The notes under the pieces were generated by a model. It worked only from the letters and a program-made list of their open reading frames with translations. It searched no databases and was not told the DNA's origin. A DNA stretch of 64,000 nucleotides, taken from NCBI GenBank assembly GCA_010093605.1, contig MU004196.1, forward strand, positions 146,606 to 210,605, in the 5' to 3' direction. The DNA comes from Lophium mytilinum. Lineage: Eukaryota. Positions within the stretch are counted from its first letter, which is position 1. Each line of letters begins with the position of its first letter. A program made the translations under genes and the position numbers. Positions 39,235-63,790 of this stretch are shown here, piece by piece.

Positions 39235-39763
39235 CAGCGTGGTTAGTAAACCGGCCAATCCTCAATCGGATTGACAGACGGTTTATCAATATCACTTATA
39301 CTTAGTCCAATCGGATCAATCCTATAGCCAATGAAATTTCGAGCGTAGATTAATCCGATTAGTTTAATTAGTAGTAGATAAATTAGTGGGTGCAACGTAA
39401 GAGTACTATAGTAGTAAGAATCTAGAGGCGCAGAAGACCTAAAAATTCGCGTTAGACGTAATTTAACCTCTAGTAGTTAACTCTTGTTATCTATTTTAGC
39501 CTATCTTATTATAGTGTTATGCTAAAGGGGGGCCAGGGCCGTAGTAAATAAGGCTAGTAATACCTAGGTACCTGTTATTAGGGCGCGCTAACCCGCTAAT
39601 ATTATATCTTACTTATATAGGCTAAGCGCTGTTGTAATAAAATAGTTTAAACAGTTTAATCTAAAAATCTAATTAATCTAATCTATTAATCTTCATTCTA
39701 TATATAACAACCTAATCAAACTGCTACCTAGTTGAGCCGGCCGCCGGTTTAGTAACCACGCTG
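39235..39763. mobile_element. Non-autonomous DNA transposon (MITE, 529 bp), hAT-like termini, RIP-like AT-rich interior
   Basis: 21-bp TIR CAGCGTGGTTA(G/C)TAAACCGGC with 1 mismatch. 7-bp TSD CCAAGAC at 39228-39234 and 39764-39770. Subterminal CAATC/GATT repeats, interior rich in TA. Confidence 0.9.
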
Positions 39764-41869
39764 CCAAGACTCGACACCACTCGAAGATGCTGCTATAGCA
39801 ATCGAACTCGGGTCATCGTTGAGACGCATGCAGGTCTCTAAGTCCCAGAGCTCTCTACTTTCCGATCTGCACTCAAATATAATCTTCCGGTCGTCGCTCG
39901 AAAAGTCTAAAGATCGAACAGTGTAGTGTCGAGAAACTTCGAGTGTCTTTATTAGTGAGCCTGACTGGACGTCCCATATCCGTATCATCCAAAAAGATCC
40001 GGTTGCGATCTTCTGGTCGTCGCTAGAAAACACTGCCGACTCAACAAGGTATTTGTCTCCACAGAGCGTATGTAGTAGCGAGCCTGACCCAGCGTCCCAT
40101 ATCCGTGCAGTCCCATCGTCAGATCCCGAGACAATCTTCTGGCCGTCATGAGAGAATGCTACTAACATGATTACCGCAGATTGGGCTATAGAGGTTTGCG
40201 AGTTTAGCCCTACATCCCACAGCCGCACGTTACTATCGCTGGATCCAGATACGACACTCTGGCCATCAGGTGACAACGCTACCGAAATCACCTCCCCTGA
40301 GTTGTCTCTAAAGGTTTGTAGTAGCGAATCTGACGCAACGTCCCACACCCGTACTCCCTCGTGGCCATGTGCGGATACAATCTTTTGGCTGTCATTCGAG
40401 AAAGCTACTAAACATTTACCACACCATGAGTATGACTCGCCGGGCATTTCGAACTTCCATATTTGCGAGTATAACGTGGCGTCCCATACCCGTACGGTTC
40501 CATCCTCCGAGCCGGACGCAATCACCCGGCTGTCTCTTGAAAACGCTACCGAAGTGACCGGGCATGAGTGAATGAGCGTTTGTAGCAGCTTCAGCGTGTG
40601 TGGTTGTACATCCCATACCCGTAGAGTGTGATCTTGGGATCCGGATACGATTTTACCACCGTCACCCGAGAAGGCGACTGAATTGACCCCGTATCGATGG
40701 CTTTCAAGCGTCTGCGATAGCCGGCTTATGAGAAGCGAGCTCGACCCTATATCCCATAATCGCAGAGGGCCATCTTCGGACACGGACACGATCTTCTGGC
40801 CATCATGTGAGAATGCCACTGAGCTAATAGGAGTTGGGTGTTCGAGTGTCTGTAGTAGCAAGCCTGACCTTGCGTCCCATACCCGTGCGATTTTATCATA
40901 AGATCCAGACACAATCTTCTGGCTGTCTCCAGAAAACGCTACGGAACTGACGATGTTTGAGTGACCTTCCAGCGTCTGTAGCAGGGAGGCGGATCGTGCA
41001 TCCCATATTCGCAACGTGTCATCAGCAGACAAAATCTTCTGGCTGTCGGGCGAGAAAGCTACGGAAGAGACGCTACCTACGTGGCCTTCGAGCGTCTGCA
41101 ATAGTGAATCCCAGTTTTCTGGGACCGATGGCTTAAGCTTGATCCATGATGGAATCTGGTCTTCGAAAAGTACCCTTATTATGCTATGAAATGGGGTGAA
41201 TTTCAGAGCAGCACAATACGTCTGAAGGGGCGCTTGCTCGATCATAGAATGGTACGTCATACTGAACCGATATGCGTCGTAGACCAATTTCATCAATAGT
41301 TGGTGGTCAAAGATCTAAGACTAGATTAGAAAGTCAGTTACATAGATCACGGAAAGAATACTCACCTGGACTAAGTTATGTAAATCGAATAGCATCAAAC
41401 CACTTTTCTCCATTGTCCCCAATAGACTGAGCGCTTCAAACCAGTGAAGGAGATGTTCCTTAAGGAACGTATACACTACCTCAAGAAGAGAAGGATCCAC
41501 GACGCTCTTTTGAAAGTGGTGGACCCAATATGAGCAAGCATACTGCAGCTCTGGGGGAATACACTCCTCAACCTTGCTTCGATCAGCTTCCTCTGCAAGG
41601 ATTCCTGGCAAGCGTAGATTGCAAATGTCGTTCTTCAAACTCTTAGACATGATCGCAAGGCAACCCCTTGTTAAATCTGTATGTGTCCTTTTACCATCAA
41701 CCCAGAACCGAGGATCGCCGGCACGTCGATTCTTATCGAGAAGGAAGTCGCGGAAGGATGGGTGGACTAGCTGAGGAGCGACTTCGGTGAGGTTGGACAC
41801 GTCCAAGACTGATCCGAGTTTATCCAATGTGATCTTCACTTTGTCTTCGAAGTCAATCTCCTTGTCCTC

Positions 41870-42003
41870 CTCGCCATCCTCGTCATTCTTACCACCCTCG
41901 CCATGTTCACCATCATCGCCGTCGTCACCATCGTCGCCGTCATCGCCATCTTCGTCGTCCTGGTCATCCTGGTAGTCGTCACCATCCTCCTCGTCATCGC
42001 CAT
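41870..42003 (-). repeat. In-frame acidic low-complexity (Asp/Gly/Glu) 9-bp-type repeat expansion inside the NACHT-associated region
   Basis: GDDEEDGDDYQDDQDDEDGDDGDDGDDGDDGEHGEGGKNDEDGEED. Confidence 0.85.
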
Positions 42004-44604
42004 GGGTTTTGTCCTCCTCTGCTCTACCTCTTCTTTCCCAACCCCCACTTGCTTGAAGCAAATAGGACAAGTGTCTTACGCGGAGTGACTCAAACAAAAC
42101 GACAATAGTTCCCACGAGTGTTCGAAACCTTTCCAATATCTCTGGTTGATTCTCTTCGTCGCAATCACCCAATATTGACTGCCTTAAGACCTGCATATAC
42201 ATCTTATCCAGCTGGGCCGTCAGTGAGTTACCCCAGGAGCTCTTTTTCAGCAGCTTAGACAACTGATCTTTCGGAAGAAAATTCGTGTCCCCAATGAATC
42301 TGCACGCAGTCGCAGCATAGATGAACAGGCCATTGGCTTTCCTCACAAGTATTGTCAGGTCTTTGGTCTCTGGCCACTTTCCGCGGACACGACGCCTTTC
42401 ATGGACTAGCGCGAGCTCATGTTGTAGAAAAGCTAGAATGTCCTGTTTTGTTTCTTTCGGGAACATGCTGTGAAGGGCCACATCACGGTGTGCCGAATTC
42501 TCCAAGGATTCAATTCCTAGTTCGATTGGCTGCTCAGGCCTGCTCGTGACGAAGAATCGTAGCTTGACGTTGCCGACTGGTTTTGATTTCCCAAAAAGTC
42601 GAAGGATCAATCGAACATCATCCTGATTGTCGCATTCATCTAGCGCGTCGATAACGAAGATGATGACCATTGGAGTGTCGATTTTGGATAATGGCTCCAG
42701 GATGAATTGGTCCCATTGGTCTTCCGTCCGTTCGCTGATAGGATGATCGTTTATCGCTTTGTGAATGTGTTCGGCGATGTTAGGATCGTAATAGTAAAGC
42801 TGGAATGCAAGAGTCGTCACAAATTTTGAGGCATCGGCGAGAGCGCCCTTGCCTTTCGAAAAGAAAAAACTGGCTCCAAGTTGTCCCTTTTCTGAGACTC
42901 GGCGTGCCACAGTGCGGGCGATGGTCGATTTTCCTGTTCCTGCCATTCCACTCAGCCAGAAGATGTGCGAGCCGTCAGTCGCAGCGCTCCATTCGTAAAT
43001 CAAGCGGAGCATACTGGCTCGCGTATTCTCCAGACATAGTGGCTCATGCTGAAGCCTATTGGAGTTGAAGGCGGCACCTTCGGCACGCGGCAGCTTTTGC
43101 AAAGTTTTCTCTCGTTCTTCACGGATTGAGTGCTGCTTGAGTGCCTGGGAAATAGATGAGTATGACTAGGTAAAGAACTAGAACGGAATTTTACATCAAT
43201 CATGATTTCCAGATTTGATGTTTTGACGTTGATGGCCATAATCGTATGGCCATCAGTTACATGCAAATCTTTTCCAATGCTGTGTTCAAGAGTTTCTACC
43301 TCTGCGAGCATAGCTTTCCAGTCATCGGCGAGCACAACATCTCTGAAGTAGCGAGATAACTTTCCCCGTGTACAATGGTAGGCGAGTCGAATTTGGTATT
43401 CTAGTATCTGGGAATATAGCTTTATTGTCTTGTATTCGAAGGCGACTTCAAGTTGTTGTACTTCACTTTCGCTGATGAAAAATACATCATTTTTCATGGA
43501 ATACTAAGGAGTGTATGGGTAACATGCCTTTGTGGTGATGTTGGAGATGTGTATATGTTTCCCTCTCTGTAAGTGATCTCTATGGTCCTGAACCGTTTGA
43601 GCAGATTGGAAATATATTCGAGACCATCAAGCGCGGCAACATCCTGGGTAACTGGATTTAGAAGCAACTATACAGCTTGCTCAGTAGGTGAAGTTGTTCT
43701 TCTATAACGATCAAGTAGGGTCACTGGAAGCAGGACCGAGACTCCAGCCCACGCGAGCGCTGCGTGTGGTTCTAAACTGGCCGCAGCGGTAATGAGGTCC
43801 TTGGCAACGATAATTGCCCTGGTAATTTCGTCGACTTTCTTTTTGGCAACGATGGTGAGTCTGGATCGAGCTGCTTCCATGCCTTCGAGTTTCACGTCAA
43901 CAAGCTTTCCGAGTTGCATTTCTCGTTCTATACCTTGTATAGGTAACTCCTGTGTCTTTGTAGATGGATCACCACCAAGAGCATCTAGAGACATAATTAG
44001 AGTATCAGTGGAACGCAAAGGAGCAGACAATTGGGTAAATCCTGCGCAAACTAACCTGGCTGAGTTGAACCTGGGAAGGATGGTGGGTTTTGCAGAAATT
44101 TGTCATAACCGTCCATAAGCTTCTTCTTGTCCTTGTCATTCAGAAGCAGATTATAAGCCTCGTCCCACAGGTCTTTTAGGCCCAGGTCTTCTGCTCCTGT
44201 AGGCGAGGCTGCAGTTTCTCTATCTAGCCCATCTTTCGGCTCATCTACAAGCTTTTGAGAGTTGTCAGCAATTTAGCTAAGTTGCAGGCTCATAGCTATC
44301 GCTCACAGCGCTACCAGGCTGCACTGAAGTCTTTGCGGATCTCCACCTGGATCCAAGGCGTTTTGTTCGGATCCATGGCACCATTTCTACGACAACACAA
44401 AAAGAATGATTAGGTCTCTCGAAGTGTATATGCAAAGATAGAACTTCTCGGAATGAAGCGATGTTAAACCGTGTTGGAATAAGTCAGCTAATGCGTCGTT
44501 AGCACCGCAAGCTTGGGGAAAAGTCCAATGCCTAATGAAGGCAAGCAAAGATACCTGGGATCGACGGGCTGAGCCTTTTCAGCTCCTCAAAGGCCATGAT
44601 CTTG

Positions 44605-50651: not shown

Positions 50652-52580
50652 CTACCAATGCGCAGTTGGCAAATTCCGAACCGAGAAGACAGGGTTAAAA
50701 TCGATGTTCACCTGCTTCCATCGGGCTCCTTCCATCACATCTAGACTCTCTTTCCTGAAAGGGCCTGTCATCCGTGTAACCTCGATTCCCAACTCGCGGA
50801 AAGTCCAGAAGCGTGCTCGATCACAGCTTCGCTCTACGAAGCAAATATCTATGCGTTGTAGAGTAGTCGCATGTCTGTCTTGATAGAACCTCTCGAAGAG
50901 ATCCTCCATAAGTCTCGCGATGGGGCCCTCGATGTCGTGCGGAAACTCTTCATCCACTCCAACAATATCACAAAGTATAAAGATCTTCAAATGTTTGGAG
51001 GGACTAAAGGAGATAGGTAATGGCTTTTCCCACACAAACTGATCTCTTTATTAATACTGTTGATTGGAAATGAGTTACCCAGCAAATCGAAAAGAAGACA
51101 ATGAATATCAGGCTGGATACCTCGCACATACGCGGGTAATTGCTTTGGAAAACGGCCAACCATAGATCCACGAGATCTTGCGGGCATTCCTAAAAGTTGG
51201 CATGATCCAAAGCTTATCCATTCGAGATACATGACGTCTTCTCTTAGGAGCTTTACACTGACCTGTTCAAATGCTTCGATATTCATATCGATCTCAAGCT
51301 GCTCTAGGTTATCACAGAGTCCCGCTAGTTTCTCAAGCTCCACAATCGTCCATCCTGCGCTGTACTGTCGAGACAAGTCCACTGGTGCGCGAGCTGTGAG
51401 ACTTTGCAATGATTTCGCCTGCTTAGAAATGGCCGGTAACAAGATCTTCCAATCCATACTCTCATTGATGATCGAGAGTGTTTCCAAGCGATCTATAGAG
51501 TTTATGAAGTCTATGACAATACATGGATCATCGTATCCATCAATACATCCGTGATATGGCGCTTTCCGAAGACCGATACATAGTGATCGGAGATTTGGCA
51601 GTCGTCCGCAAAACCGCTTGAAGAAATGCGGAGGGCAACGGTTGCCTAGATCAAGGCATCTGAGGCGGCTCCAGTCCATGGATCTTTCCAAGGCCTCGCA
51701 ATGTTCCAGAGTGAAATCGTAAAACCCGACCTTGGTCTGCACTTTTCCCGGCAGACTGAGTTCTTGAAGGGGTGGAAGTCGGTCCTCCGACTGAAGAGGC
51801 AAATTAAGGTTTTCTTGTTGCCAGTATTGAACGCTGCGAATGGCAGACACTTGATCAGTGAGATCGTTCCATAATTCGGTTGACGCAATCTCTAGCTTCA
51901 GTATCCTGAGTCGGCTGTTTCCTACAAGTATTCGTCTCAATGCCTCAAGTTCGGACCTCGGTCGAAGAACATAGTTTGCCTCTCCATTCTCGACCACCAA
52001 GTCCCCTACAGTATCGTAGAGGAAGACCAAACATGTCAATGAATAGAGTAACGGAGAGCCGAGAAGGCGCAAGTCCAGTGGTATTGACGCAATTTCCGCC
52101 TCTGGTCTGCGGAGGTTGCTAACAAAGAGGTTTACAGATGGCCACCGGCTTTCAAGAATCGAGATAAAACTCTCCGGGATGTGTCGGTTCGCGTTCCAGG
52201 CGAAAGATTGGAGGTGTTTGAGGTTGCAGAGCACTTGCTCGAGCTTGAACCAGCCATTTTCTTCTTTGAAATCAGCTATCGTGATCTGCCTGACATGCTC
52301 CGACAGGTCGTGATTGGCATCGAGCAAGAGGATTATCAACTGCTGTGAAGCGCCTGCAAAGGGTCCGACGTCACTGAGTGTTATGGAGCGCCATCTGAAG
52401 GGATCTGCAAGGCGTTTTGTCCATTTTGATACTAACGCTAATTGCTTGAAGGATTGTGGACGGTCGGTATCGAGCTTCTCGCCGTTAGCTATTGAGCGGG
52501 AAGCGCCGAACGGAAGGAAAGAGAACCTGATCAAAAATAAGGCGCATGGAATCATCATTCAACTTCATCAGATTCGCCAT
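50652..52580 (-). CDS. F-box protein with degenerate LRR-like region; 3' exon structure uncertain
   Basis: Spliced N-terminus MANLMKLNDDSMRLIFDQ|LDTDRPQSFKQLALVSKWTKRLADPFRWRSITL fits an F-box. Repeated LxxLxL units (LRILKL, LQELSL, LRCLDL, LRSLCI, LETLSI, LEQLEI). Confidence 0.7.
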
Positions 52581-54553
52581 TATTGAGACGATTTCTATGT
52601 CTTCGTTGTAGGTGACGATTCGTCCGGTGGTTCAACGTCGCCTGTTTTTCTGTAGATACCGGCGTTCGAATGCTACGTTGGCGGCACAGTTGAAATGGGA
52701 TAGCTTGAATCTAGAGTAAGAAAGGAGTTGGAACTAGGCTGCAAGTCCGAAACCGTTTGCAATCACGATGAAGACGCGAAAACTCCAATTGCTCCCCTTG
52801 CAATATAGAGAAGCCTTGGTCCTTTGGATCTTCTTCGTCCAATTGCCTAGAACTTAGAAGTGTTTGTGTATGGTGTATTTATGGGAAGTTGAAGCGCGTC
52901 GTGGAGCGTCAGCCCAGTTTTGACTAACCCAATTTGGATAGCTCATGGCCCCCCACCAATTCTGTCAACGGCCAGCTCCCAGCCTCGTGCCTCCATCATC
53001 TCCATCGACCTGCCATTATGATATCTGCGGATGGAGTCCGATTTTGCACGGAATTAAGTTCGCTTCTATCGCTCTGTCTCAACATTGGTCTTCGACAGAC
53101 CCATGTGCCTGCGATGGATGGACCTACGGTTCTCTGGAGTATTGGAGTACATATCTTCTTACCAATATTCTACGCAATAGTGCATATTGGCGAACATGCT
53201 ACGTTTTTATGTCTTCTCATGGAACACAGGCCTATCGGCTATCTCGAGCAATTTGATCGCAAGGCTACATGACATTATGGCTGTTCTTGTTGTACCCCGC
53301 AGGAAGAGTCGAAGCAACCAGCAGCCAAATTTGCCCAGTCCTTCAATCCTTGGCTATTACCAGAAGTCATCTTGTCGGCATTTCTCCTTAGGTTCCCTAA
53401 ATCAGTCCAGTATCTCCAAAATGCTGTTGTATAGATTAGAAAGGTAACAGAGACAAAAGCAAATAAGACAGGGGTATAGTAGGACCAAAGCCTCGGAGCC
53501 ATCCATAGGGATCCGTGGTTCTTACCGATCAAATGACCGATACGTTCTAGAAATCTACAACGTCTACATGGAACGTCTCATACCTATCGGACTCCATTCT
53601 AGCACATACTGCTCCAGGACCTGGGGCCGAATATAATTCCCACCACAAAGTACTCTCAACCGCGACGCATGGAAAGGCATATACAACACATCCGCTTCTA
53701 CCATTATCATCTCGACTCTGATGCTATTGAGCTTCAGTATCTCTTGGCATTCCGCCATGAGGTGAAAGATCGTGCGAGAAGGCGCGTGTACGCTGGGTCA
53801 AAGCTCTTCCCTACCTGTGGGGAGTTAGTACAGGAAGAACCCAATTCAAGATATATGCCTCTCGTCTTCAGAAGCAGCGCCAGTCTTTCGAACCTCACAA
53901 GAGCTACCTCGCCAACGAGATAGGGTGGAGTTACGGTATGCACACACCGCGCCAAGAAATACATTCTGTCACTCAAAGTACGCAGGGGCAAAATACTAGC
54001 CAGCAGGTTTAGGAATAGACATTGAAGCTGCCCGATAGATCTAAGACACTTGTACAGTACCAAATTAGACGTTTGGGCACTCTTCACAGCTCTTTGGGGT
54101 ACGCCCATCGTCTCTAGAAACTACAGGTACATTGTAAAGGTCATCGCCATGGAAATTAGACTACCATTTGACTAACGGGAGACATGCTAACTAGGCCACT
54201 CCTAACAGTGATGTCGAGAGAGCAAGAGTAAGCTAGGGTAATCGTATATCCATGGCCCAGTGCTGTACTCACAAGACATCATGTAGATCAGACCCTGAGC
54301 GAGACTAACCGAATACTTCTAACTTTTCGAAACTACATTTCCAGTACACAAGTCTAGGCACGCCGCCCTCCAACATCTTCCAGGAATATGACAATGAGCT
54401 GAAGCACCCCAAACAGCGGCCAACCAGGCCAACCATAAGCGCATGCAACCTCCCCGATTCAAAGTCTCAAGTTCTTTACATATCCTCGGAAATTTGATAA
54501 CCCACTAGAGCACCCCAAACAGTGGCGAGCCAACAGCAAAAACGCTCCCAAAC

Positions 54554-55798
54554 CTACTCCTCTCCCAGCCCCCCCTTCCATGCTTCCAGCAGCGCCTCAT
54601 AAAACGCTGGCGTTCCCTCGTTCTCCCACAAATCCATCCCAACCGCCAATTCTTGACACCGCCTCTCCCCCAGCACCACGGACAACACCCCATCCAATCC
54701 CTTCGCCTTCTCCGCCTCCGCGACATACCCCACATATTCCGCTCTCAGCGCCGCCTTAGGCTCGCTATCCCGATCCATCCTCACCTCCCAGCTCTGCAGC
54801 TCTGGGTTCCCCCTCGCCGTCCGCCCCGCCTGGACCAGCACGTCCGGAAAGTCCGGCAGAAATAACGGCAAACGCACTAGCTCCCAGGGCACCGTCGTGC
54901 TCTGTTCCCAGTCGACCACCGCGGTGATCTTGGTAGTATTCGCGGCGTCGACAAGGACGTTATGGTGGGAGAAGTCGCCGTGGACTAGCGGAAACGGACC
55001 GGGGCGGAGAGGCATAGACGGAAGAAGTTCTTCCAGCGCTTTCGGAAAATTAAGAGCGGAGGCGACAAGGGGTTCTACAAGATCTGGTTCCTGGCGTTCG
55101 CAGACGGCGCGGAGGTTGCTTTCCGTGCGGTTAAAGGGCGTGTGGCGACACCAAGCTGCGAAGTAGTCGGCTGCGGTGTCAAACGGCCCGCCGAGATACG
55201 GGATGGGACCGATATCATACGTACCGTCGTCGAGCTGGATGATAGAGCCAATCTTCGGGAAGCGGACGGAGGCGATCTCTGCGTGGAGTTCAGCGAAGGC
55301 GGGGAAGAAGGAGGCGCGGTACTCCCTAGGGACTTGTCCGCCGCGGCCTAGCCCGCCAAAGGCGTCGATTGCGTTCATCCCGTATAAGAATTCCATGAGC
55401 ATGAAGGCGGCGCCTACGGGGCTATTGAGCGCATTGGGCTCGTAGGCGTACACTTGCGGGACGCGGATTGAGGTCTGCTCGGCGAGTAGCCGCATTGTGG
55501 CTACCTCGCTGTGGAAACGGAGTTCCTGGTCTGTTGACTCTGGCTCGCCGCCACTACGCCGCAGACGGACGACCCATTTGGTGCTGTCGCTGAAGTTGAG
55601 GAGGCGGAGGACGTTGCGGCCGCCGGCATTGCACTCGTTTGCTAGCTGGCAGGCGATGGCGGTTTCTTGATCTCCGAGCATTTCCTGCTTCTTGACGAGG
55701 GCGTAGTCGACGAGGGCGGGCCAGTTGACATCGCCCCACTCCCGCTCCCAGTCGATGTTGGTGTCCTTCCAAGCGAAGTCGCTTGAGTCGGCGGTCAT
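54554..55798 (-). CDS. Aminoglycoside phosphotransferase/choline kinase-like (APH) protein
   Basis: SEVATMRLL...VPQVY, FMLMEFLYG, Brenner-type HGDFSHHNVLV and AVVDWE. Confidence 0.88.
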   Translation of the reverse strand: MTADSSDFAWKDTNIDWEREWGDVNWPALVDYALVKKQEMLGDQETAIACQLANECNAGGRNVLRLLNFSDSTKWVVRLRRSGGEPESTDQELRFHSEVATMRLLAEQTSIRVPQVYAYEPNALNSPVGAAFMLMEFLYGMNAIDAFGGLGRGGQVPREYRASFFPAFAELHAEIASVRFPKIGSIIQLDDGTYDIGPIPYLGGPFDTAADYFAAWCRHTPFNRTESNLRAVCERQEPDLVEPLVASALNFPKALEELLPSMPLRPGPFPLVHGDFSHHNVLVDAANTTKITAVVDWEQSTTVPWELVRLPLFLPDFPDVLVQAGRTARGNPELQSWEVRMDRDSEPKAALRAEYVGYVAEAEKAKGLDGVLSVVLGERRCQELAVGMDLWENEGTPAFYEALLEAWKGGLGEE

Positions 55799-56313
55799 CT
55801 TCTGGAGGAGCGGGAAGGACTGGACAGGGCTTGTGGTGGTGTGGTGGTGGTGGTGGTGGTGATAGGAGGAGGTGTAGGGGTAAAGAGGGTGTTGATAAAA
55901 TCTTATATGAGAGAAGCAAGATGAACAATGGTTTTGTGAACGACATTGGTCGATGGAAGAGATTCACTTGGGATCTTAAAGATCTCCATGCTGAAGTGCC
56001 CTGCAAAAAGCGTGGGCTCATAAACTACGGATTGAGTTGCTCCGGCGCATCGAAAACACTGCGATAACATGTAAAGCCCCCGTGAGCTTAAATAAGAGAT
56101 ACCCTACTTGCTGGAACACGGCCTGCTTGCCTCTGTTTGTGGCGCTTCAGGACGTCATCATAACCTGGAAGAGATGGTAAGGCGGCGTGCTCAGATCCGT
56201 GTCGTCGTACTGGACAGTTCTGCACATCGTTGTAACCTCATTGTAGCTTGTACACAATGTGAATATTGCACCTCTTGTATACTTTAATCAGCTTGTTAAA
56301 GCACAATGAGTAC

Positions 56314-56835
56314 CTAAAGTGCAAATATGCAGACACCTAGGCCCTGACACTCCGGGTGATCCTGTTCGCATTGGCTGAAGTCATAATTGCAGTCTTGGGC
56401 GCCGGTGATAATGCACATCCAGGGTTCGTGAACATGACAGCTAACGGGATCAACAATATTGGAATCCCGAGGCTTCTTGATCTGGCAGTTGGCGGGGTTG
56501 CTGATAGGGCAGTGAACAGGCTCGCTGATATTGCAGAATCTGGCGTTAACGATGGCGCAGTTCTTGGGCTTATGGACATCGCAGCGCGTCGAGTCGGTGA
56601 TGATACCTCCTTGGGGAGCCCTGATATCGCAGCCGATGGCGTCGATAATAGTACAGTCCTCAGGATCCAAGATAGTACAGAATTGAGGATTGATAATGTG
56701 GCAACCAGTGGGGTTGGTAAGAAGCCAGCCTTGTGGGGCGATGATTTGGCCGCCTCTGCGTACGGTGATAATGCGGTAGGTAGGAGCAGTGTTTCTTTGG
56801 GCATTATGTAGGTTGACTTCTTGAGGAACGACCAT
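56314..56835 (-). CDS. Cys-rich octapeptide-repeat protein (15 x [ILV]xxPxxCx), predicted beta-solenoid
   Basis: Gap-free 8-residue periodicity over 120 aa with diverged DNA. ATG in good context (CACCATGG) and TATAA about 180 bp upstream. Confidence 0.8.
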   Translation of the reverse strand: MVVPQEVNLHNAQRNTAPTYRIITVRRGGQIIAPQGWLLTNPTGCHIINPQFCTILDPEDCTIIDAIGCDIRAPQGGIITDSTRCDVHKPKNCAIVNARFCNISEPVHCPISNPANCQIKKPRDSNIVDPVSCHVHEPWMCIITGAQDCNYDFSQCEQDHPECQGLGVCIFAL

Positions 56836-57679
56836 GGTGAATGATGTGTAAATGGCTATCGGTTCATGGACGGAATAATGAATTTAAATTTGCAGAAGAG
56901 GACGCGGCTGAAGCTTTTGAACTGGCATGAGAAGGTATTCTTTGCTTGGAAGGAAAGACACGTACGAGGAATTCGTCGACCCAGGGAAGTTGTAAGACAC
57001 ACTTCCGTGGTCTTATAACGTCTTACCCTTTCTAGCAAGACGAGGAGCATGGTAGGCATACAATTTGAGGGAGCGGTGCCCGGAGCAGCTGAAGTCCAAT
57101 GGATCGAGCCTTCGCTACCAGCCTTCCAGCTGCGCTTGATACTTTTGAGCGACGTCTCTGCTGCGACCTAGGTATAAGGCCTACAATGTACCAGAACTAA
57201 TGTAGAATCTAGTCATATGGTTGTACATACCGAACTAGCGTGACATCTCGAGATTGATTGCAACCGGAGATCTCCTTTTTGGAAACATTGATGATCATCT
57301 CCTCTCCCAGTAGACTCCAGACACGCTATCGCAGTTCCAATAAAAACAATATACAAAAAGAAGGGCGGAGCCAGCTACTTCCTAACCTCCTTTGACACTC
57401 ATCGTGTTAGTTGCAATATATCCAAGTTGAAATCGGTATTTCGCAATGACCAGAACAACATCAGCTCCCAAAATATAAACTTACAGCGCTTCGAAGGCCA
57501 TATTTATTTAGAATCCCCATATTCCTTTGCCAATACTACTTCAAGGTATGTGCAGGTGGAGTGATATGCTCCATCCTTCCGATCTGTCCTTGAATCGACG
57601 CCATGTCCTCGATACCGTTCCCACGGTAAATCATGAGCTATTTCGATATTGGTTATCCCCATCGTGAGTCCTACGATAC

Positions 57680-58178
57680 CTAGTCCTCCCTCTTCAAAAT
57701 CTTCCTCAATGCCTCCTCATTCTCCGACGTCCTCTTAACCTTGCCTTCTTCAACAGGCTTATCCGGTTTATCCTTCGCAAACAGCGCTTCCTTCAGAATT
57801 CCAGTATCATCGACTTTCTCTAGCTGCCCGTGCCGACGCCTGGATTCACGATACCAGCTGATCTGCCCTCCATCGGCTTCACGATGCTTTTGTGCATTGA
57901 GTTTCGCGGCGCGTATCGAGGTGCGGGAGTAGACGAAGAGAAGGCCGGCCATTGTCAGCGCGGCTAGGGGCGCCACGAGAGTCTGTTTTGATATCAGTCT
58001 CCTAATGCTTGGCGGTATAGAAGCTATCGACAGCGAGTCATAGCAGATTATAGCAGATTGAGTCACTTACTCGTCCATTGATGAGACTCCTCCGTACAAC
58101 TTTCTTAGCTCCTCCGGGAACGTTGGGGACTTCAGAGATGCCGTCTGCTGAGCGTGGTACTGACAGACGTCCTCCCAT
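57680..58178 (-). CDS. Small hypothetical single-TM protein; 2 exons
   Basis: MGGRLSVPR...INGR|gtaagt..ctgat..cag|TLVAPLAALTMAGLLFVYSRTSIRAAKLNAQKHREADGGQISW. Confidence 0.7.
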
Positions 58179-58655
58179 GCTGGCTTATAGCTGTGATGGT
58201 TGAGGATGAGTTGCGATGCTGGTGGTGTGAGCTTAGGTCGTGAATATACGCTACGTCATTAGATGGTTCGAGGGCGAGGCGCAATGGACCATGGCGGGAC
58301 GGCTCGTTTTCGGTAGAGCGATCCGAGAAGATCTTAAATATTAATTTAAAGTCTGTATAGCTGGTAGATGCTCTCAGGACGTGACTTTGCGAGGTGGTCG
58401 TCTGGTGGAGCAGTTTTAGCCGCAAAGCTCGGATGCGCGGCATGACTTGAGCTTCAAATAATTTAGAACAAACTCAAGTCATTATTCAGCCAATCGCCGA
58501 GGCAGGCGTTCTATACTCAACCCCTCGTGTTCTCCTTTCATTTGTCATTAAGCGCGTCTACGCTAAGCTGGCAGCTGGCAGAATCGAGAGTCGTTTGGGG
58601 CCAGATAGCACTGCTTCCGTCATTCTGAGACTGTTCTCGTCCAGGCCTTGCGTCA

Positions 58656-58662
58656 TTACTAA
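58656..58662. promoter_or_regulatory. Yap1/AP-1 response element TTACTAA upstream of glutathione reductase
   Basis: Exact YRE, adjacent to TGCGTCA. GLR1 is a known Yap1 target in yeast. Confidence 0.55.
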
Positions 58663-58706
58663 AAGTCGCATCCTTTCACCGGATAGGCCCTGTCACCATT
58701 CTACCT

Positions 58707-60314
58707 ATGAATTTCATCATACATAAAGTCACTGCTTCTGCCGTATCAGTCGCCGCATCGCCGCACTCCTCCACTTCCATCCTTCTGGCTTTCCGCGCTC
58801 CCTCGAAACTGGCCGCTCCACGCCTTGCATCGGTCTCCCGCCACTTCTCGTCGTCGCCGTCAATCATGGCGCCTATTCAGAAAGAGTGTGACTATCTGGT
58901 TATTGGGGGAGGAAGCGGGGGTATTGCATCTGCGCGACGAGCGGCAAAACACGGTGCGAAGGTTATTGCGATTGAGAGTGCCCGCTTGGGAGGGACCTGC
59001 GTGAACGTCGGTTGTGTGCCCAAGAAAGTGACCTGGAACGCCGCGGCGATAGCCGAGAACTTCAAGGACGCAAAAGCGTATGGGTTTGGCGGATTCGAAG
59101 AGCCTACTTTTGACTGGCCGTACTTCAAGAAGAAGCGTGATGCATATGTCAAAAGACTGAATGGCATCTACGCCAACAACCTCGGAAAGGACAAGATCGA
59201 CACCCTGCATGGTCGCGCGAGCTTTGTGAGCAAGAACGAAGTCGAGGTGAAGCTCGATGACGGCACGAAGCAGACTATCAAGGCGAAGAATATCCTTATT
59301 GCGACGGGAGGCCGACCTACAGTTCCGGACATCCCCGGAAAGGAACTATGCATCGACAGTGATGGCTTCTTCGACTTGGAGGAGCAGCCAAAGCGGATCG
59401 CAACCAGTGGTGCTGGCTACATTGGAGTGGAGATGTCTGGAATGCTACACGCTCTTGGTTCTAAAGTCGATTTCTTCATTCGTGGAGACAAATTACTCAG
59501 GAGTTTCGATCCTCTGATTCAAGACACTGTCACGAAGGAGTACGAGCGACAAGGCGTCAGCCTCCATAAGGGAGCCCAGATCACCAAGGTCGAGAAGCTA
59601 GACGACGGCTCGAAAAAGGTGTACTACAAAGAAGGTGACAAGGAGTCGAGCATCGAAGTCGATGTCGTTCTCTTCGCCGTCGGCCGAGTCCCAGAAATCG
59701 AGGATCTTCACCTCGACAAGCTTGGAATCAAGCTCAATGAAAAGAAGCACATCATCGTGGACGACTACCAGAATACCAACGTCGAGAACATCTTCGCCCT
59801 GGGAGATGTCTGCGATCGTGGTTTCGAACTGACACCCGTAGCTATTGCGGCCGGCCGCCGTCTCAGTGAGAGACTCTTCGCTGGAAAGAAGGACGCCCAT
59901 CTCGACTACAGCAACATCCCATCTGTCGTTTTCGCACACCCTGAAATTGGAAGCATCGGGTTGACCGAGCCACAAGCGCGAGAGAAATACGGCGATAGCC
60001 TCAAGATCTACAAGACCGAGTTCACAGCTATGTACTACGCCATGATGGAGCCGGAAGACAAGGGCCCTACCGCATACAAGATCATCTGCGAGGGCGTGAA
60101 TGAAAGAGTCGTTGGATTGCATATCTTGGGCGTGGGAAGCAGCGAGATTCTACAGGGCTTTGGTGTTGCTATCAAGATGGGCGCGACGAAGGCGGATTTC
60201 GATAATTGCGTCGTAAGTTCGAAGAAATCAGAACTGATATGCTACAGCAGAGCTAATTTATTCATCCAGGCAATTCATCCCGTCTCAGCAGAGGAACTGG
60301 TCACCATGACCTAG
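58707..60314 (+). CDS. GLR1: Glutathione reductase, with optional mitochondrial presequence (second ATG at 58866); intron 60213-60269
   Basis: GGGSGG FAD motif, redox-active GGTCVNVGCVPKK, GAGYIG, LTPVAIAAGR, C-terminal AIHPVSAEELVT. Confidence 0.97.
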   Translation: MNFIIHKVTASAVSVAASPHSSTSILLAFRAPSKLAAPRLASVSRHFSSSPSIMAPIQKECDYLVIGGGSGGIASARRAAKHGAKVIAIESARLGGTCVNVGCVPKKVTWNAAAIAENFKDAKAYGFGGFEEPTFDWPYFKKKRDAYVKRLNGIYANNLGKDKIDTLHGRASFVSKNEVEVKLDDGTKQTIKAKNILIATGGRPTVPDIPGKELCIDSDGFFDLEEQPKRIATSGAGYIGVEMSGMLHALGSKVDFFIRGDKLLRSFDPLIQDTVTKEYERQGVSLHKGAQITKVEKLDDGSKKVYYKEGDKESSIEVDVVLFAVGRVPEIEDLHLDKLGIKLNEKKHIIVDDYQNTNVENIFALGDVCDRGFELTPVAIAAGRRLSERLFAGKKDAHLDYSNIPSVVFAHPEIGSIGLTEPQAREKYGDSLKIYKTEFTAMYYAMMEPEDKGPTAYKIICEGVNERVVGLHILGVGSSEILQGFGVAIKMGATKADFDNCVVSSKKSELICYSRANLFIQAIHPVSAEELVTMT

Positions 60315-61684
60315 TCAAACGCATATTCAGTGTTTGCTGTGCGAAATGGAGAAACCGCATATACCTAGATTTCCTATTGTAGATGTACAATACGCACTCC
60401 AATAAAGACAGTAGAATATCTTCAACACCCAGGAGAAACATTGATACGCGAACTACGTGAGAACCTACTTCGGATACGAGATTGACTTTTCAGATACCTT
60501 CCTACGGCTCTATTCTTCCAGCCTTTACGCAGCTTCATCCTCTCACACCCTGTCGATTCTACTGGTCTCGTTCCTACGACAACTCTTCTCTTGCAGGACT
60601 TGCAGGACTTCTATGGCCACGTAATCGAATCGAATGTTATCACAATTCCACGGTTCCACCTCTCTACCACGACTATTATCCTCTAAATTTCTCAACGGCC
60701 ACGTCATCAGGAGCCCAGAGCGACTCTACCACGGAACCACCCACCCCCCGCTGACTCATCCCCCTCCCCCAAACCTACATAAGCCCGTCCTCCCCCGTCC
60801 CTCTTCTCCTCTTCGCCTTCGGGCATTCACTCCTTCCAATTTCCTAAAATCAAGGGCTCATTGCATGTATCGCCATATAATTTGTTATATGTAGAGCACA
60901 AACCCGGCTCTTGTAGACTATGCTATCTAGACCCTTCCCCCGCCATGTATTACCCACTTTTGTCACTCCTTGGGGGCAGCGGTTCAAACCCGACAGATAC
61001 TTAGTAGGAGACGATGCGCAGATGGATGAGAGCCTTGTGGATTTGGTTTGGATATATAGGAGGTTTTTGACCCCGAGAAAGGGTTTTCCTCACAATCATA
61101 TACTGTTCCCGATCTACATATGACCTTTTTGCTATGATTTTTGTGATGTGTGTTGAGGTTGTGGGGAGGACAGGTGGCCTGAGTGGTGTGGTGTTTGAGA
61201 CTGGCATAGACCTTTAACGTGCTGAGGCATCGTAGCAACTCATGATGACTTGACTAGTAACGTGAAGCTATTATATGACTGCTTAGGGTGCATCGAGGTA
61301 TTCCAGAGGCTCTGAGGTCGTATCCAGGCGTGAGTGATGAGTAGGAGTTGAAGCCAGCTCAACTCAGCCCTTCGCCACTGACACATCCTGTATGCCTATT
61401 CCCGGAGCACTACTTCAAATTATCAAGATACAGGACTCTGACAAATGTTCAGGACCTCGATTCGAATGAAAAATGACGTTGATTCAGTGTCCTACATAGA
61501 AGCTCCAACTCCCGCTACCCAGTACACACACTATGCGAGAACTTGAGGCAGAACAGCATGATTCCCAGCTCTTCCATGCCCCCAATATACACAATGAAAG
61601 CCTTTTCCCTCTCATACAAGCCCATCATCCCATCGCTCCCAAGCCGATCCCCATACACCCTCCTCTCCCCACCCTCACTCAACC

Positions 61685-62122
61685 TCACTCCCCCTTCTTC
61701 CCCGCGACAACCCTCAGCACAAAATTCACCACCACGGCCGCCAGCAGCGCAATCGCGAGCACCGTCGGGCCCAGCCTATCATCAAACCCGCCCTGCCCGC
61801 GCTGCCGGATGCTCTTCGCGCGCCAGTGGAACGTGAACAGCGCGTAGATCATAGCCGCCATGGCGACCAGCGTGAACAGCCCCGCGCTGATCTGTCCGAC
61901 TTTGTCGCCGAAGTTCAGCAGCCCGATGGCGAGCCCGCCGAGGATCACGGTGAAGTTGAGCCAGCTGAGGAAGGTGCGCTCGTTGGCGAAGAAGACTTTG
62001 GGCTCGACGCGCGTGGGGAGGGCGATGCGTTTGCCTGGGGGTTGTTAGGGACGGGGTATTGGAGAGAGGGGAGGGGAGGGAAGAGTACCTGGGGCGGTTT
62101 GGAGGAGAGGTTGGGTGGACAT
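61685..62122 (-). CDS. VTC1: Vacuolar transporter chaperone 1 (polyphosphate synthesis VTC complex); 2 exons
   Basis: [37 protein letters not shown]...FDDRLGP. Confidence 0.95.
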
Positions 62123-62498: not shown

Positions 62499-63162
62499 AT
62501 GACTTCGGTATGGCTGGACTCTGGCTAAAGCGCATGTTTCCGAATGCTAATGTAAGCTCCCACAGCCTGTTTCGACGACCCGGCTGCAGCAAATCGCAAC
62601 AGACGTATGTACATCCACTTCCCACTTATATGTTCGAAGAAGCTGATTGGGCTCTCAGGCATGCGAAAGCGCCATCGGCAATTCAGAGAGCTACAACCAT
62701 AGCAGTGTCGCAGCTTGGAATACCGAGATCATCGTACGTTCACCGCATCACACGAGCACCCCGACTACACCTCCCAACCGCCTCATATCCTCAACACCGC
62801 CTTCCGCTCTCTATTGCTAGCATTATCTCGCCATTTCCGTCAATCCCCGCATCACTCATACTCGAAGTTTTAGTACTAACAATTCCCAGAACAGCGTGCT
62901 GAAAGCCCTCATCTCCGAAACCACATCCACCACCACCTCGCAACCCCCCTTCAAGTACGCCGTCAACAGCACCATCATCCAGCACATCACGCCCAGCCCT
63001 GGCGCCGCAGGCGAGAGCGGCAGCACCGGCCGGCGGGGCATGCACAGCGCCATGGGCGCGTACTGGAACAACGACCGGGACGGCATGTGGAGCTGGAAGT
63101 ACGACGGCGGGGAGAAGAAGGGCATGGATATTGTGGTCAGCATTATGTGGGTGGCGGTATAA
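62499..63162 (+). CDS. Dynein light chain, Tctex-1 family; 4 exons
   Basis: MTS|PVSTTRLQQIATD|ACESAIGNSESYNHSSVAAWNTEII|NSVLKAL...FKYAVNSTIIQH...GMHSAMGAYWNNDRDG. Confidence 0.9.
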
Positions 63163-63205
63163 GCGCGTGGCGTGTGTATAACAAAGGGGGACGTGTGCTG
63201 GAGTA

Positions 63206-63790
63206 TTAGTATCCTAGGGGGTGGAGCCGTGTGGTTGAGAGAGGTGAACAAAAATCGGAGGAGCGGACTGCGATGGTTGAGGCCTTGGGTGCTGCTGAGA
63301 CCGGTCGGTTGCGTGTTGCATCTGCTGGCGGTGCTTGGAGTCTGTCTCTTCTTCTTCGTTGGTGTGTGACTTCTTGCGACTTGGCGGTGAGGGAAATCCG
63401 AAATCGTAACTTTTCTCTTTGATTCTTGATCGGGCTGTGATGTTCTGGTATTCCGAATGTGTAAAGTCCAAGCTGTTGAGAGATAGGCCTCAAGGTTCGA
63501 CGTTGCCAAGACAAGATATACTTCCAAAAGGAAAAGGTGCTGGCGGGTGGCTGCAGGTGGACTTCGGGTAAAGACTTTTTCTTGTACCACCTCAGTATCG
63601 CATAAAGATCGAGCGCGCTCCGCTTCGCTTCCTTCTTCCTTATACATACTTTCCTGTACCGTAGCATCCCACCAAGGTCGAGCGCACTCCACTTCGCTTG
63701 CTTCTTCATTATACACATTTTCTTGTACCATCTAAGCATCCGGTAAAGATCGAGTGCACTCCACTTCGCTTTCTTCTTGATTGTACACAT
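63206..63790 (-). CDS. Possible orphan protein beginning with three cationic 23-24-aa repeats
   Basis: The only minus-strand frame open across all three repeats, with several synonymous differences between copies. No recognisable homology. Confidence 0.3.
   Translation of the reverse strand: MCTIKKKAKWSALDLYRMLRWYKKMCIMKKQAKWSALDLGGMLRYRKVCIRKKEAKRSALDLYAILRWYKKKSLPEVHLQPPASTFSFWKYILSWQRRTLRPISQQLGLYTFGIPEHHSPIKNQREKLRFRISLTAKSQEVTHQRRRRDRLQAPPADATRNRPVSAAPKASTIAVRSSDFCSPLSTTRLHPLGY

Follow-up and report, generated by a model that had tools for sequence, protein, structure and literature searches.

Described solenoids closest to the octapeptide protein

The proteins CARP, C-CAP, tubulin cofactor C (TBCC) and RP2 share an intracellular right-handed beta-helix with internal stacks of Cys and aliphatic residues; the internal Cys stacks are described for TBCC and RP2 and the right-handed helix for TBCC (PMC4539340). 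Ice-nucleation proteins of the InaZ type (PF00818; bacterial and Mortierellaceae) are built from a 16-residue coil with two similar halves, in which the inward-pointing residues are Ser5, Ser13, Leu and Gln (PMC9418140, PMC13080227). For the fungal ice nucleators, the literature reports Cys-rich C-terminal caps (PMC12978214, PMC13365547, PMC13288671), a signal peptide (PMC12978214, PMC13365547) and 23–42 repeats, against 50–100 coils in the bacterial proteins. A yeast provides a precedent: its repeat protein, restricted to the species and of de novo origin, is predicted to be a solenoid but has a different, 17-residue repeat (bioRxiv 10.64898/2026.08.29.748005).

Within a 64,000-nucleotide window of Lophium mytilinum contig MU004196.1 (the whole stretch of DNA that was analysed), we studied a gene for a 173-residue, 19-kDa protein, P0001, which carries 15 octapeptides of the form [ILV]xxPxxCx. 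P0001 is predicted to resemble the CARP-type proteins in being an intracellular beta-helix of probably right hand, inside which Cys and aliphatic residues would likewise be stacked. Their coil is triangular with three strands, whereas that of P0001 would be two-fold (2×8) with a Pro ladder, and the identity is 10–14%. P0001 gave no Pfam match to CAP_C (PF08603) or TBCC (PF07986) at E ≤ 1. Searches with the CAP_C and TBCC profiles indicated that the genome has its own CAP and TBCC, one locus each, both on other contigs. Smith-Waterman scores of P0001 against these two proteins (24 and 26) were below the shuffle means (27 and 28), and 81% and 69% of 1000 shuffles, respectively, equalled or exceeded them. 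Judged from the models, P0001 would work like a CARP-type intracellular solenoid; having neither a profile match nor similarity to the genome's own CAP and TBCC, it is not a member of that family.

With the ice-nucleation proteins, P0001 shares the predicted 16-residue coil of two halves and an inward small residue placed two positions before an inward aliphatic one, which is Ser-x-Leu in those proteins and presumably Cys-x-Ile in P0001. It differs from them in having Pro where they have Gly, in lacking TxT, SLT and YGS, and in having a predicted 7.5 coils. PF00818 did not match P0001, and the best match of this profile in the genome lay elsewhere and below the cut-off (E = 0.5). The initial annotation had regarded the period as unassignable to a known family; this did not hold for the period itself, since ice-nucleation proteins have coils of this 2×8 length (PMC9418140), though the motifs that define their family are absent from P0001.

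An ungapped array of 15 octapeptides

P0001 is encoded by a single exon at 56314–56835 on the minus strand, as indicated by the ORF, codon bias, start context and an RNA contig. Its leader (residues 1–30; 56746–56835, minus strand) has low model confidence (pLDDT) and lacks a signal-like stretch by hydropathy. The 15-octapeptide array follows (residues 31–150; 56386–56745, minus strand) and forms a predicted 7.5-coil beta-solenoid, as judged by repeat statistics and models. The remainder (residues 151–173 plus stop; 56314–56385, minus strand) is a probable C-terminal cap, on the basis of its sequence and a short low-confidence helix. The gene is single-copy in the genome of 43.4 Mb (49 contigs).

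The 15 units were exactly those first listed, and no indel was found among them. Position 1 is aliphatic in all 15 units (I12/V2/L1), position 4 is Pro in 11 (Ala in three, Ser in one) and position 7 is Cys in 12, the same counts as in the initial annotation. Position 6 is G, N or D in 9/15 units, and Pro4 is present in 7/7 even units vs 4/8 odd units. A degenerate extra unit (residues 23–30) lies directly before the array. BLOSUM self-similarity of P0001 gave z = 8.1, 9.6, 8.7 and 7.9 at lags 8, 16, 24 and 32 (500 shuffles); none of the other lags from 2 to 33 rose above z = 0.8. When the 127,276 six-frame positions of the window were scanned for the ladder pattern, the array scored 38/45 and the best non-overlapping segment scored 16, a segment scoring 17 having been set aside as overlapping the repeat locus. 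The periodicity of the 15 units is thus far above chance.

P0001 contains 15 Cys and 7 His. Three more Cys than those of the array (Cys156, Cys163 and Cys169) lie in the last 23 residues, in agreement with the initial annotation; they form, with His160, a C156-x3-H160-x2-C163-x5-C169 cluster, which is accompanied by a hydrophobic last strand. A His pair, H134-x-H136, lies within the array. A hydropathy scan of the first 40 residues revealed no hydrophobic signal-like stretch (best 11-residue Kyte-Doolittle mean 0.75), in line with the earlier view that a signal peptide is absent. The C-terminus (56314–56331, minus strand) consists of a Cys and four residues, the last of which is Leu. We take this to resemble an extended C(x)3X prenylation signal; a capping strand is the more likely identity of this end.

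We compared the outward residues that flank the aliphatic ladder between odd and even strands. Charged residues or His occupy 1/16 of these positions in odd strands vs 7/14 in even strands, whereas I, L, V, T, A or P occupy 12/16 vs 4/14, and the mean hydropathy is 1.12 vs −1.9. In permutations, the alternation of faces gave p = 0.012 with a period of two and p = 0.70 with a period of three, the face statistics having been picked after the sequence had been looked at; the alternation of whole units between odd and even reached only p = 0.068. The odd/even pattern supports the two-sided helix that had been proposed (p about 0.012), and favours a 16-residue two-faced coil over a 24-residue coil or a triple-stranded helix. 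Internal ladders of Ile and Cys had also been proposed: the ladders themselves are borne out by the counts, and the inward direction of their side chains is presumed.

The repeat ORF behaves like a real gene

The repeat units are 43–54% identical in DNA and 22–35% in protein, with no stop and no indel, which agrees with the earlier statement that the DNA has diverged and the pattern is kept at the protein level. TRF called no tandem array at the locus. At ladder positions 1, 4 and 7, respectively, 15, 15 and 14 of the 15 units have the same second codon base, whereas just 10, 9 and 10 have the same third base. Among the pairs of units with the same ladder residue at these positions, the codons differ in 28/67, 34/58 and 27/66.

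Synonymous codon use of the ORF (z = 4.3) resembled that of the seven clear genes of the window and was reached by none of 5000 simulations; the ORF frame was the best of six. Its codon score was matched or bettered by 3.8% of random 522-nt windows, real genes being among these. With A at −3 and G at +4, the ATG has a strong start context. Two overlapping ORFs, at 56434–56811 (plus strand) and 56337–56804 (minus strand), were rejected as shadows on codon use. RIP indices were not raised, and Rfam gave no match in positions 52000–62000 of the window.

Three sequencing runs were compared, two of DNA (X1, X2) and one of RNA (X3). Run X3 was taken as RNA because GLR1 and the gene upstream of the repeat ORF are joined at canonical splice sites in it, joints that X1 and X2 lack. 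Contig X3/17 covered the whole ORF without gap or difference. The same X3 contig, and no other, carried the joint 56913–56966 of a 52-nt GT..AG intron in the 5' leader (56914–56965, minus strand), which ends 78 nt upstream of the ATG; the joint was absent from both DNA runs. In the spliced leader, a stop in frame 17 codons upstream of the ATG leaves the reading frame unextended, so no signal peptide is hidden behind the leader intron. As read from the sequence, an out-of-frame upstream ORF of three codons (56856–56867, minus strand) begins 32 nt before the main ATG. The RNA support is one contig, which extends over the neighbouring kinase gene as well and stops at the point where the transcript of the upstream gene branches or abuts, so read-through is possible. 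Codon use, ladder codons, start context and spliced RNA indicated that the repeat ORF behaves like a real gene, of which translation is putative.

Search for relatives

Pfam gave one match to P0001 at E ≤ 1, Cornifin (E = 2.4e-4; 21.7 bits), which is under the curated cut-off of 34.8. A confident match to a described repeat family, which would have counted against the initial annotation, was thus not obtained. PHROGs gave no match at E ≤ 1, NCBIfam gave one chance match, and PDB sequences gave four (E 0.71–1.5) and none with a profile.

An exhaustive phmmer search returned 20 matches at E ≤ 1e-3. All 20 were inspected, and none was a full-length orthologue: 13 were period-8 arrays, two were period-16 arrays and five were other repeats. 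The 13 period-8 arrays, which we call young, have a lag-8 identity of 52–94% vs 25% in P0001. Ten of the matches were looked up, and all belonged to clusters of 1–7 members. Near-perfect arrays resembling [ILV]xxPx[GD][SCT]x were present in P0008, P0010, P0011 and P0013; the proteins that harbour such arrays include an ENaC-type channel, a KRAB zinc-finger protein and one from a bacterium. The presence of such arrays in unrelated proteins suggests that this type of octapeptide may arise repeatedly via 24-nt expansions.

A word-indexed protein search, covering proteins of near length and longer, yielded no relative among two candidates of near length and 42 longer ones; with the pseudo-alignment described below, it yielded 1/7999, itself a member of that alignment. 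Back-translated scans found no relative among 23 stretches from metagenomes, five from viral contigs and 18 from prokaryote genomes. By tblastn, one phage and three plasmid matches were obtained, and the two that were opened (H1 and H4) are antisense to annotated repeat proteins. In Porphyromonas phage PP754928.1 (L002 1391–2164, minus strand), the annotated hypothetical protein XAW31785.1 has about 15 Ala/Thr/Val-rich octapeptides with Cys or Trp; it is a candidate further 2×8 solenoid, matched only via its antisense frame at E = 0.1.

The exact P0001 sequence is present in the Atlas, possibly from the same genome, and absent from a collection of 15 billion proteins in which the neighbouring kinase is present. 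The best Atlas feature scores (0.78–0.84) were within the range reached by shuffled proteins. As to the taxonomic spread that had been asked about, no orthologue was found in any collection searched; orphan here means not found in these collections, with fungal-genome collections outside the scope, and the spread is a lower bound. Since no orthologue was found, conservation and covariation provide no evidence. No paper on this octapeptide motif was found in searches of openly readable full texts.

Predicted fold of P0001

The Atlas language-model structure had a pTM of 0.77 and a pLDDT of 0.79 and matched beta-helix proteins with TM scores of 0.70–0.87 over residues 28–152. Single-sequence AlphaFold2 gave a poor model (pLDDT 44.9, pTM 0.38), in which strands nevertheless recurred every eight residues; its best structural matches were C-CAP (Z 9.7, rmsd 3.5, 102 aligned) and TBCC (Z 8.6), and bactofilin had Z 7.7. 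The evidence for order is mixed in that the Atlas model is confident and the single-sequence AlphaFold2 model is not. We obtained a second AlphaFold2 model with a pseudo-alignment of 8 of the 20 phmmer matches, that is, of unrelated near-perfect repeat arrays. Its pLDDT was 75.1 overall and 89–96 per ten-residue block over residues 31–120, and each unit had a strand of three residues plus a bridge of one. Residues 1–20 had a pLDDT of 42–43, one strand was at 22–23, and a short helix at 153–159 was present in both AlphaFold2 models with low confidence. According to PMC11795689, AlphaFold2 over-predicts solenoids for perfect repeats and ESMFold is without that bias; the confidence gained with the pseudo-alignment is therefore not independent evidence.

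The second model matched pentapeptide repeats (Z 12.3), TibA of the autotransporter helix type (10.5), TBCC (10.2), C-CAP (9.6) and bactofilin (8.7). The structural matches had 3–14% identity, and no row stood out. Structures of the CARP/C-CAP/TBCC/RP2 group gave Z 9.1–10.2 and rmsd 2.9–3.6 over 97–114 aligned residues, and C-CAP and TBCC were among the nearest folds of both AlphaFold2 models, which bears out the likeness to C-CAP/TBCC noted at the outset. The pentapeptide repeats MfpA, Qnr and Rfr resemble P0001 in their short strands and four corners per coil and provided the top rows (2j8k, Z 12.3, rmsd 3.9, 130 aligned; MfpA, Z 9.5, rmsd 2.7, 123 aligned). P0001 is unlike them in lacking a period of five (z = −0.1, −1.9 and −0.8 at lags 5, 10 and 20), in its narrower coil and in the lack of a Pfam match. 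Neither an ice-nucleation protein nor a gp5 chain was among the 50 structural rows listed for the AlphaFold2 models, which leaves room for those folds. The AlphaFold and Foldseek check that had been called for returned a predicted solenoid with weak Foldseek matches (TM by query at most 0.50 vs viral models and at most 0.39 vs PDB chains).

The second model superposed on right-handed helices with rmsd 2.4–3.9, vs 8.8–11 for left-handed ones, where the handedness of most matched structures is as we take it to be. The bactofilin alignment was nearly residue for residue (37–134 on 37–137, rmsd 2.8), and in the MfpA alignment 123 model residues spanned 167 of MfpA. With the coil lengths that we assume for bactofilin and MfpA, these alignments correspond to 15–17 residues per coil. 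The Atlas structure and both AlphaFold2 models agree with the earlier proposal of a beta-solenoid with about 16 residues per coil, as a prediction. From these models, P0001 likely folds as a beta-solenoid, probably a right-handed one whose coils have about 16 residues each.

Proposed function and alternative explanations

We favour, with a probability of roughly 0.45 for the mechanism as a whole, the reading that P0001 is a lineage-restricted, intracellular, non-enzymatic solenoid that serves as a binding platform with buried structural Cys. It would have originated in an ancient tandem expansion of a 24-nt unit, whose register has since been kept by selection at the protein level. Each coil, about 16 residues long, would comprise two octapeptides, so that the array has about 7.5 coils. 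Ile or Val at position 1 and Cys at position 7 would be stacked inside as reduced structural ladders, like those of C-CAP/TBCC, with Pro or Ala at position 4 and Gly, Asp or Asn at position 6 presumably forming the corners. Residues 151–173 would cap the C-terminal end, possibly round a Zn held by C156, H160, C163 and C169, and these four may form either a Zn site or a disulfide. The coil would be amphipathic, with a strip of Ile, Val, Thr and Ala on one sheet and His, Lys, Arg and Asp on the other; the apolar sheet may pack on a partner protein or on a second copy of P0001, with the charged sheet towards solvent.

P0001 offers a new sequence solution for a predicted fold of a familiar kind and could not be assigned to any family tested. 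It would be a natural and apparently selected way to build a beta-solenoid that is very narrow and has Pro at two corners per coil. Its small size should make expression easy, and a structure would test the reality of predicted solenoids in orphan repeat proteins, could serve protein designers as a minimal amphipathic scaffold and would reveal the path by which a tandem repeat of 24 nt becomes a folded protein.

The same solenoid might instead polymerise, end-to-end or side-by-side, into bactofilin- or curli-like filaments or a functional amyloid-like scaffold, the last a role suggested in the initial annotation; we regard this reading as unlikely. Bactofilin (PF04519), a right-handed solenoid that is small and stands alone, would have coils of nearly the same length as those predicted for P0001, and BacA matched the second model (Z 8.7, rmsd 2.8, 96 aligned), at a level shared with many solenoids. 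The model has no confident N-terminal cap, and the weak Atlas feature matches included clusters with 40–74% Bactofilin members (scores 0.78–0.79, below 0.9 and hence a lead only). The identity is only 6%, however, no Bactofilin Pfam match appeared at E ≤ 1, and the Cys and Pro ladders and the cap-like C-terminal segment set P0001 apart. P0001 and a NACHT-WD40 gene about 12 kb from it have no motif in common (tblastn of that region, E ≤ 10), which gives no hint of an NLR/amyloid pair. The NACHT-WD40 gene, at about 39749–44272 (minus strand), is of the fungal NLR (HET-E-like) type and has an acidic Asp/Gly insert in its NACHT-containing exon.

Metal or thiol buffering, which the initial annotation had proposed, would have P0001 bind Zn or Cu at the Cys/His cluster near its C-terminus or at the His pair of the charged face, or act as a 15-Cys redox buffer. 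The Cys and His content, the cluster and the pair are in its favour, and P0001 has no signal-like stretch, so its thiols are probably reduced. Metallothioneins have clustered CC, CxC or CxxC motifs. P0001 contains none of the three, and its 12 ladder Cys are spaced 8 or 16 apart and presumably buried. The link to GLR1, said to be about 2 kb away, found no support either: another gene lies in between, GLR1 is transcribed in the opposite direction, and no evidence of linkage was found. We consider this role improbable; a structural Zn in the cap is compatible with the favoured binding platform too.

In a further reading, P0001 would be the first member to be seen of an undescribed class of eukaryotic 2×8 solenoids. 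Having started de novo as an expansion of 24 nt, it would have converged on the ice-nucleation coil with Cys-for-Ser and Pro-for-Gly ladders. Its apolar sheet would self-assemble into fibres or sheets, giving a cytoplasmic or surface scaffold or a threonine-free binder of ice or hydrophobic surfaces. We hold the odds to be well against it; if true, the young near-perfect arrays in animal and bacterial proteins would be earlier stages on the way from tandem repeat to solenoid.

Cornifins are vertebrate, secreted-independent envelope proteins and are described as disordered. A disordered Pro/Cys-rich protein of this SPRR type (PF02389), cross-linked by disulfides into a wall or envelope, would share with P0001 the Pro and Cys in a period-8 register and could explain both the sole Pfam match and the low confidence of single-sequence AlphaFold2. 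The Cornifin score is below the curated cut-off, however, and 6 of the 20 phmmer matches carry Pfam matches, five of which are Cornifin in unrelated proteins, so the profile responds to period-8 arrays generally. The aliphatic position of P0001 is invariant, order-promoting residues make up 36% of the repeat region, and the language-model structure is confident, ESMFold being free of AlphaFold2's solenoid bias (PMC11795689). We regard this reading as quite doubtful.

Ice binding or ice nucleation through a flat Ile/Thr/Val/Ala face, another role that had been proposed, is very unlikely. The 2×8 coil, the Cys7-x-Ile1 placed in the register of the inward Ser-x-Leu/Gln (PMC9418140, PMC13080227), the presence of one uncharged and one charged face, and the Cys-rich caps described for fungal nucleators (PMC12978214) speak for it. 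Against these, TxT, SLT or SxLT and YGS each occur zero times in P0001, S or T stands at both outward positions (S/T-x-S/T) in 0/15 strands, and no Ice_nucleation match was found at the repeat locus. The coils are also few beside the repeats of the fungal nucleators, and P0001 lacks anything like the signal peptide reported for these (PMC12978214, PMC13365547).

P0001 might also be non-functional, a decayed 24-nt tandem repeat in an untranslated or read-through part of neighbouring transcripts. The lack of an orthologue in any search, the absence of the exact sequence from the 15-billion-protein collection that holds the neighbouring kinase, and the extension of the RNA contig beyond the repeat gene are consistent with this. 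The 15 units have, however, drifted to about 50% DNA identity without a stop or indel, conservation is concentrated at the second codon positions of the three ladder sites, codon use is gene-like and the start context is strong, which makes this reading very improbable.

The triple-stranded beta-helix of T4 gp5 and VgrG is the classic fold for octapeptide repeats, and the VxG motif is typical of gp5. An intertwined trimer of this kind would fit the period of eight without indels, and one of the 20 phmmer matches reached the cut-off of Gp5_trimer_C, but Gly at position 3 in 1/15 units, the lack of a PHROG match at E ≤ 1 and of a Pfam Gp5 match, and a two-strand alternation that suits a two-faced monomer coil make it the least credible alternative.

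Neighbourhood of the repeat gene

A gap of 515 nt separates the repeat ORF from the APH-type phosphotransferase gene downstream of it (54554–55798, minus strand). Upstream of the ORF lies a small minus-strand gene (57680–57952), beyond which GLR1 is placed on the plus strand. The small gene is a 90-aa ORF with no Pfam match, flanked in X3 by introns at 57983–58070 upstream and about 57389–57484 downstream.

Yeast GLR1 is known for dual mitochondrial and cytosolic targeting. In the GLR1 ORF of the window (58707–60314, plus strand), a second ATG near 58866 is preceded by a 53-residue extension rich in Ser, Arg and Ala, which suggests that the enzyme may likewise be targeted to both compartments; the GLR1 intron at 60213–60269 was spliced in X3. 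Just past GLR1, at 60725–61000, lies a short multi-copy element with a summed contig depth of about 39,700 in X3 vs 908 next door. It was raised about 10-fold in both DNA runs, had many variant contigs and no Rfam match at the gathering score, and may represent a transcribed repeat of high abundance.

At 62856–63790 (minus strand), two ORFs that overlap in different frames each open with about three copies of a unit of about 25 residues, encoded by a 75-nt tandem repeat; the one tested had no Pfam match. Near the phosphotransferase gene, a short dispersed repeat at 54133–54227 was the only part of the window to which several unrelated contigs of the DNA runs aligned.
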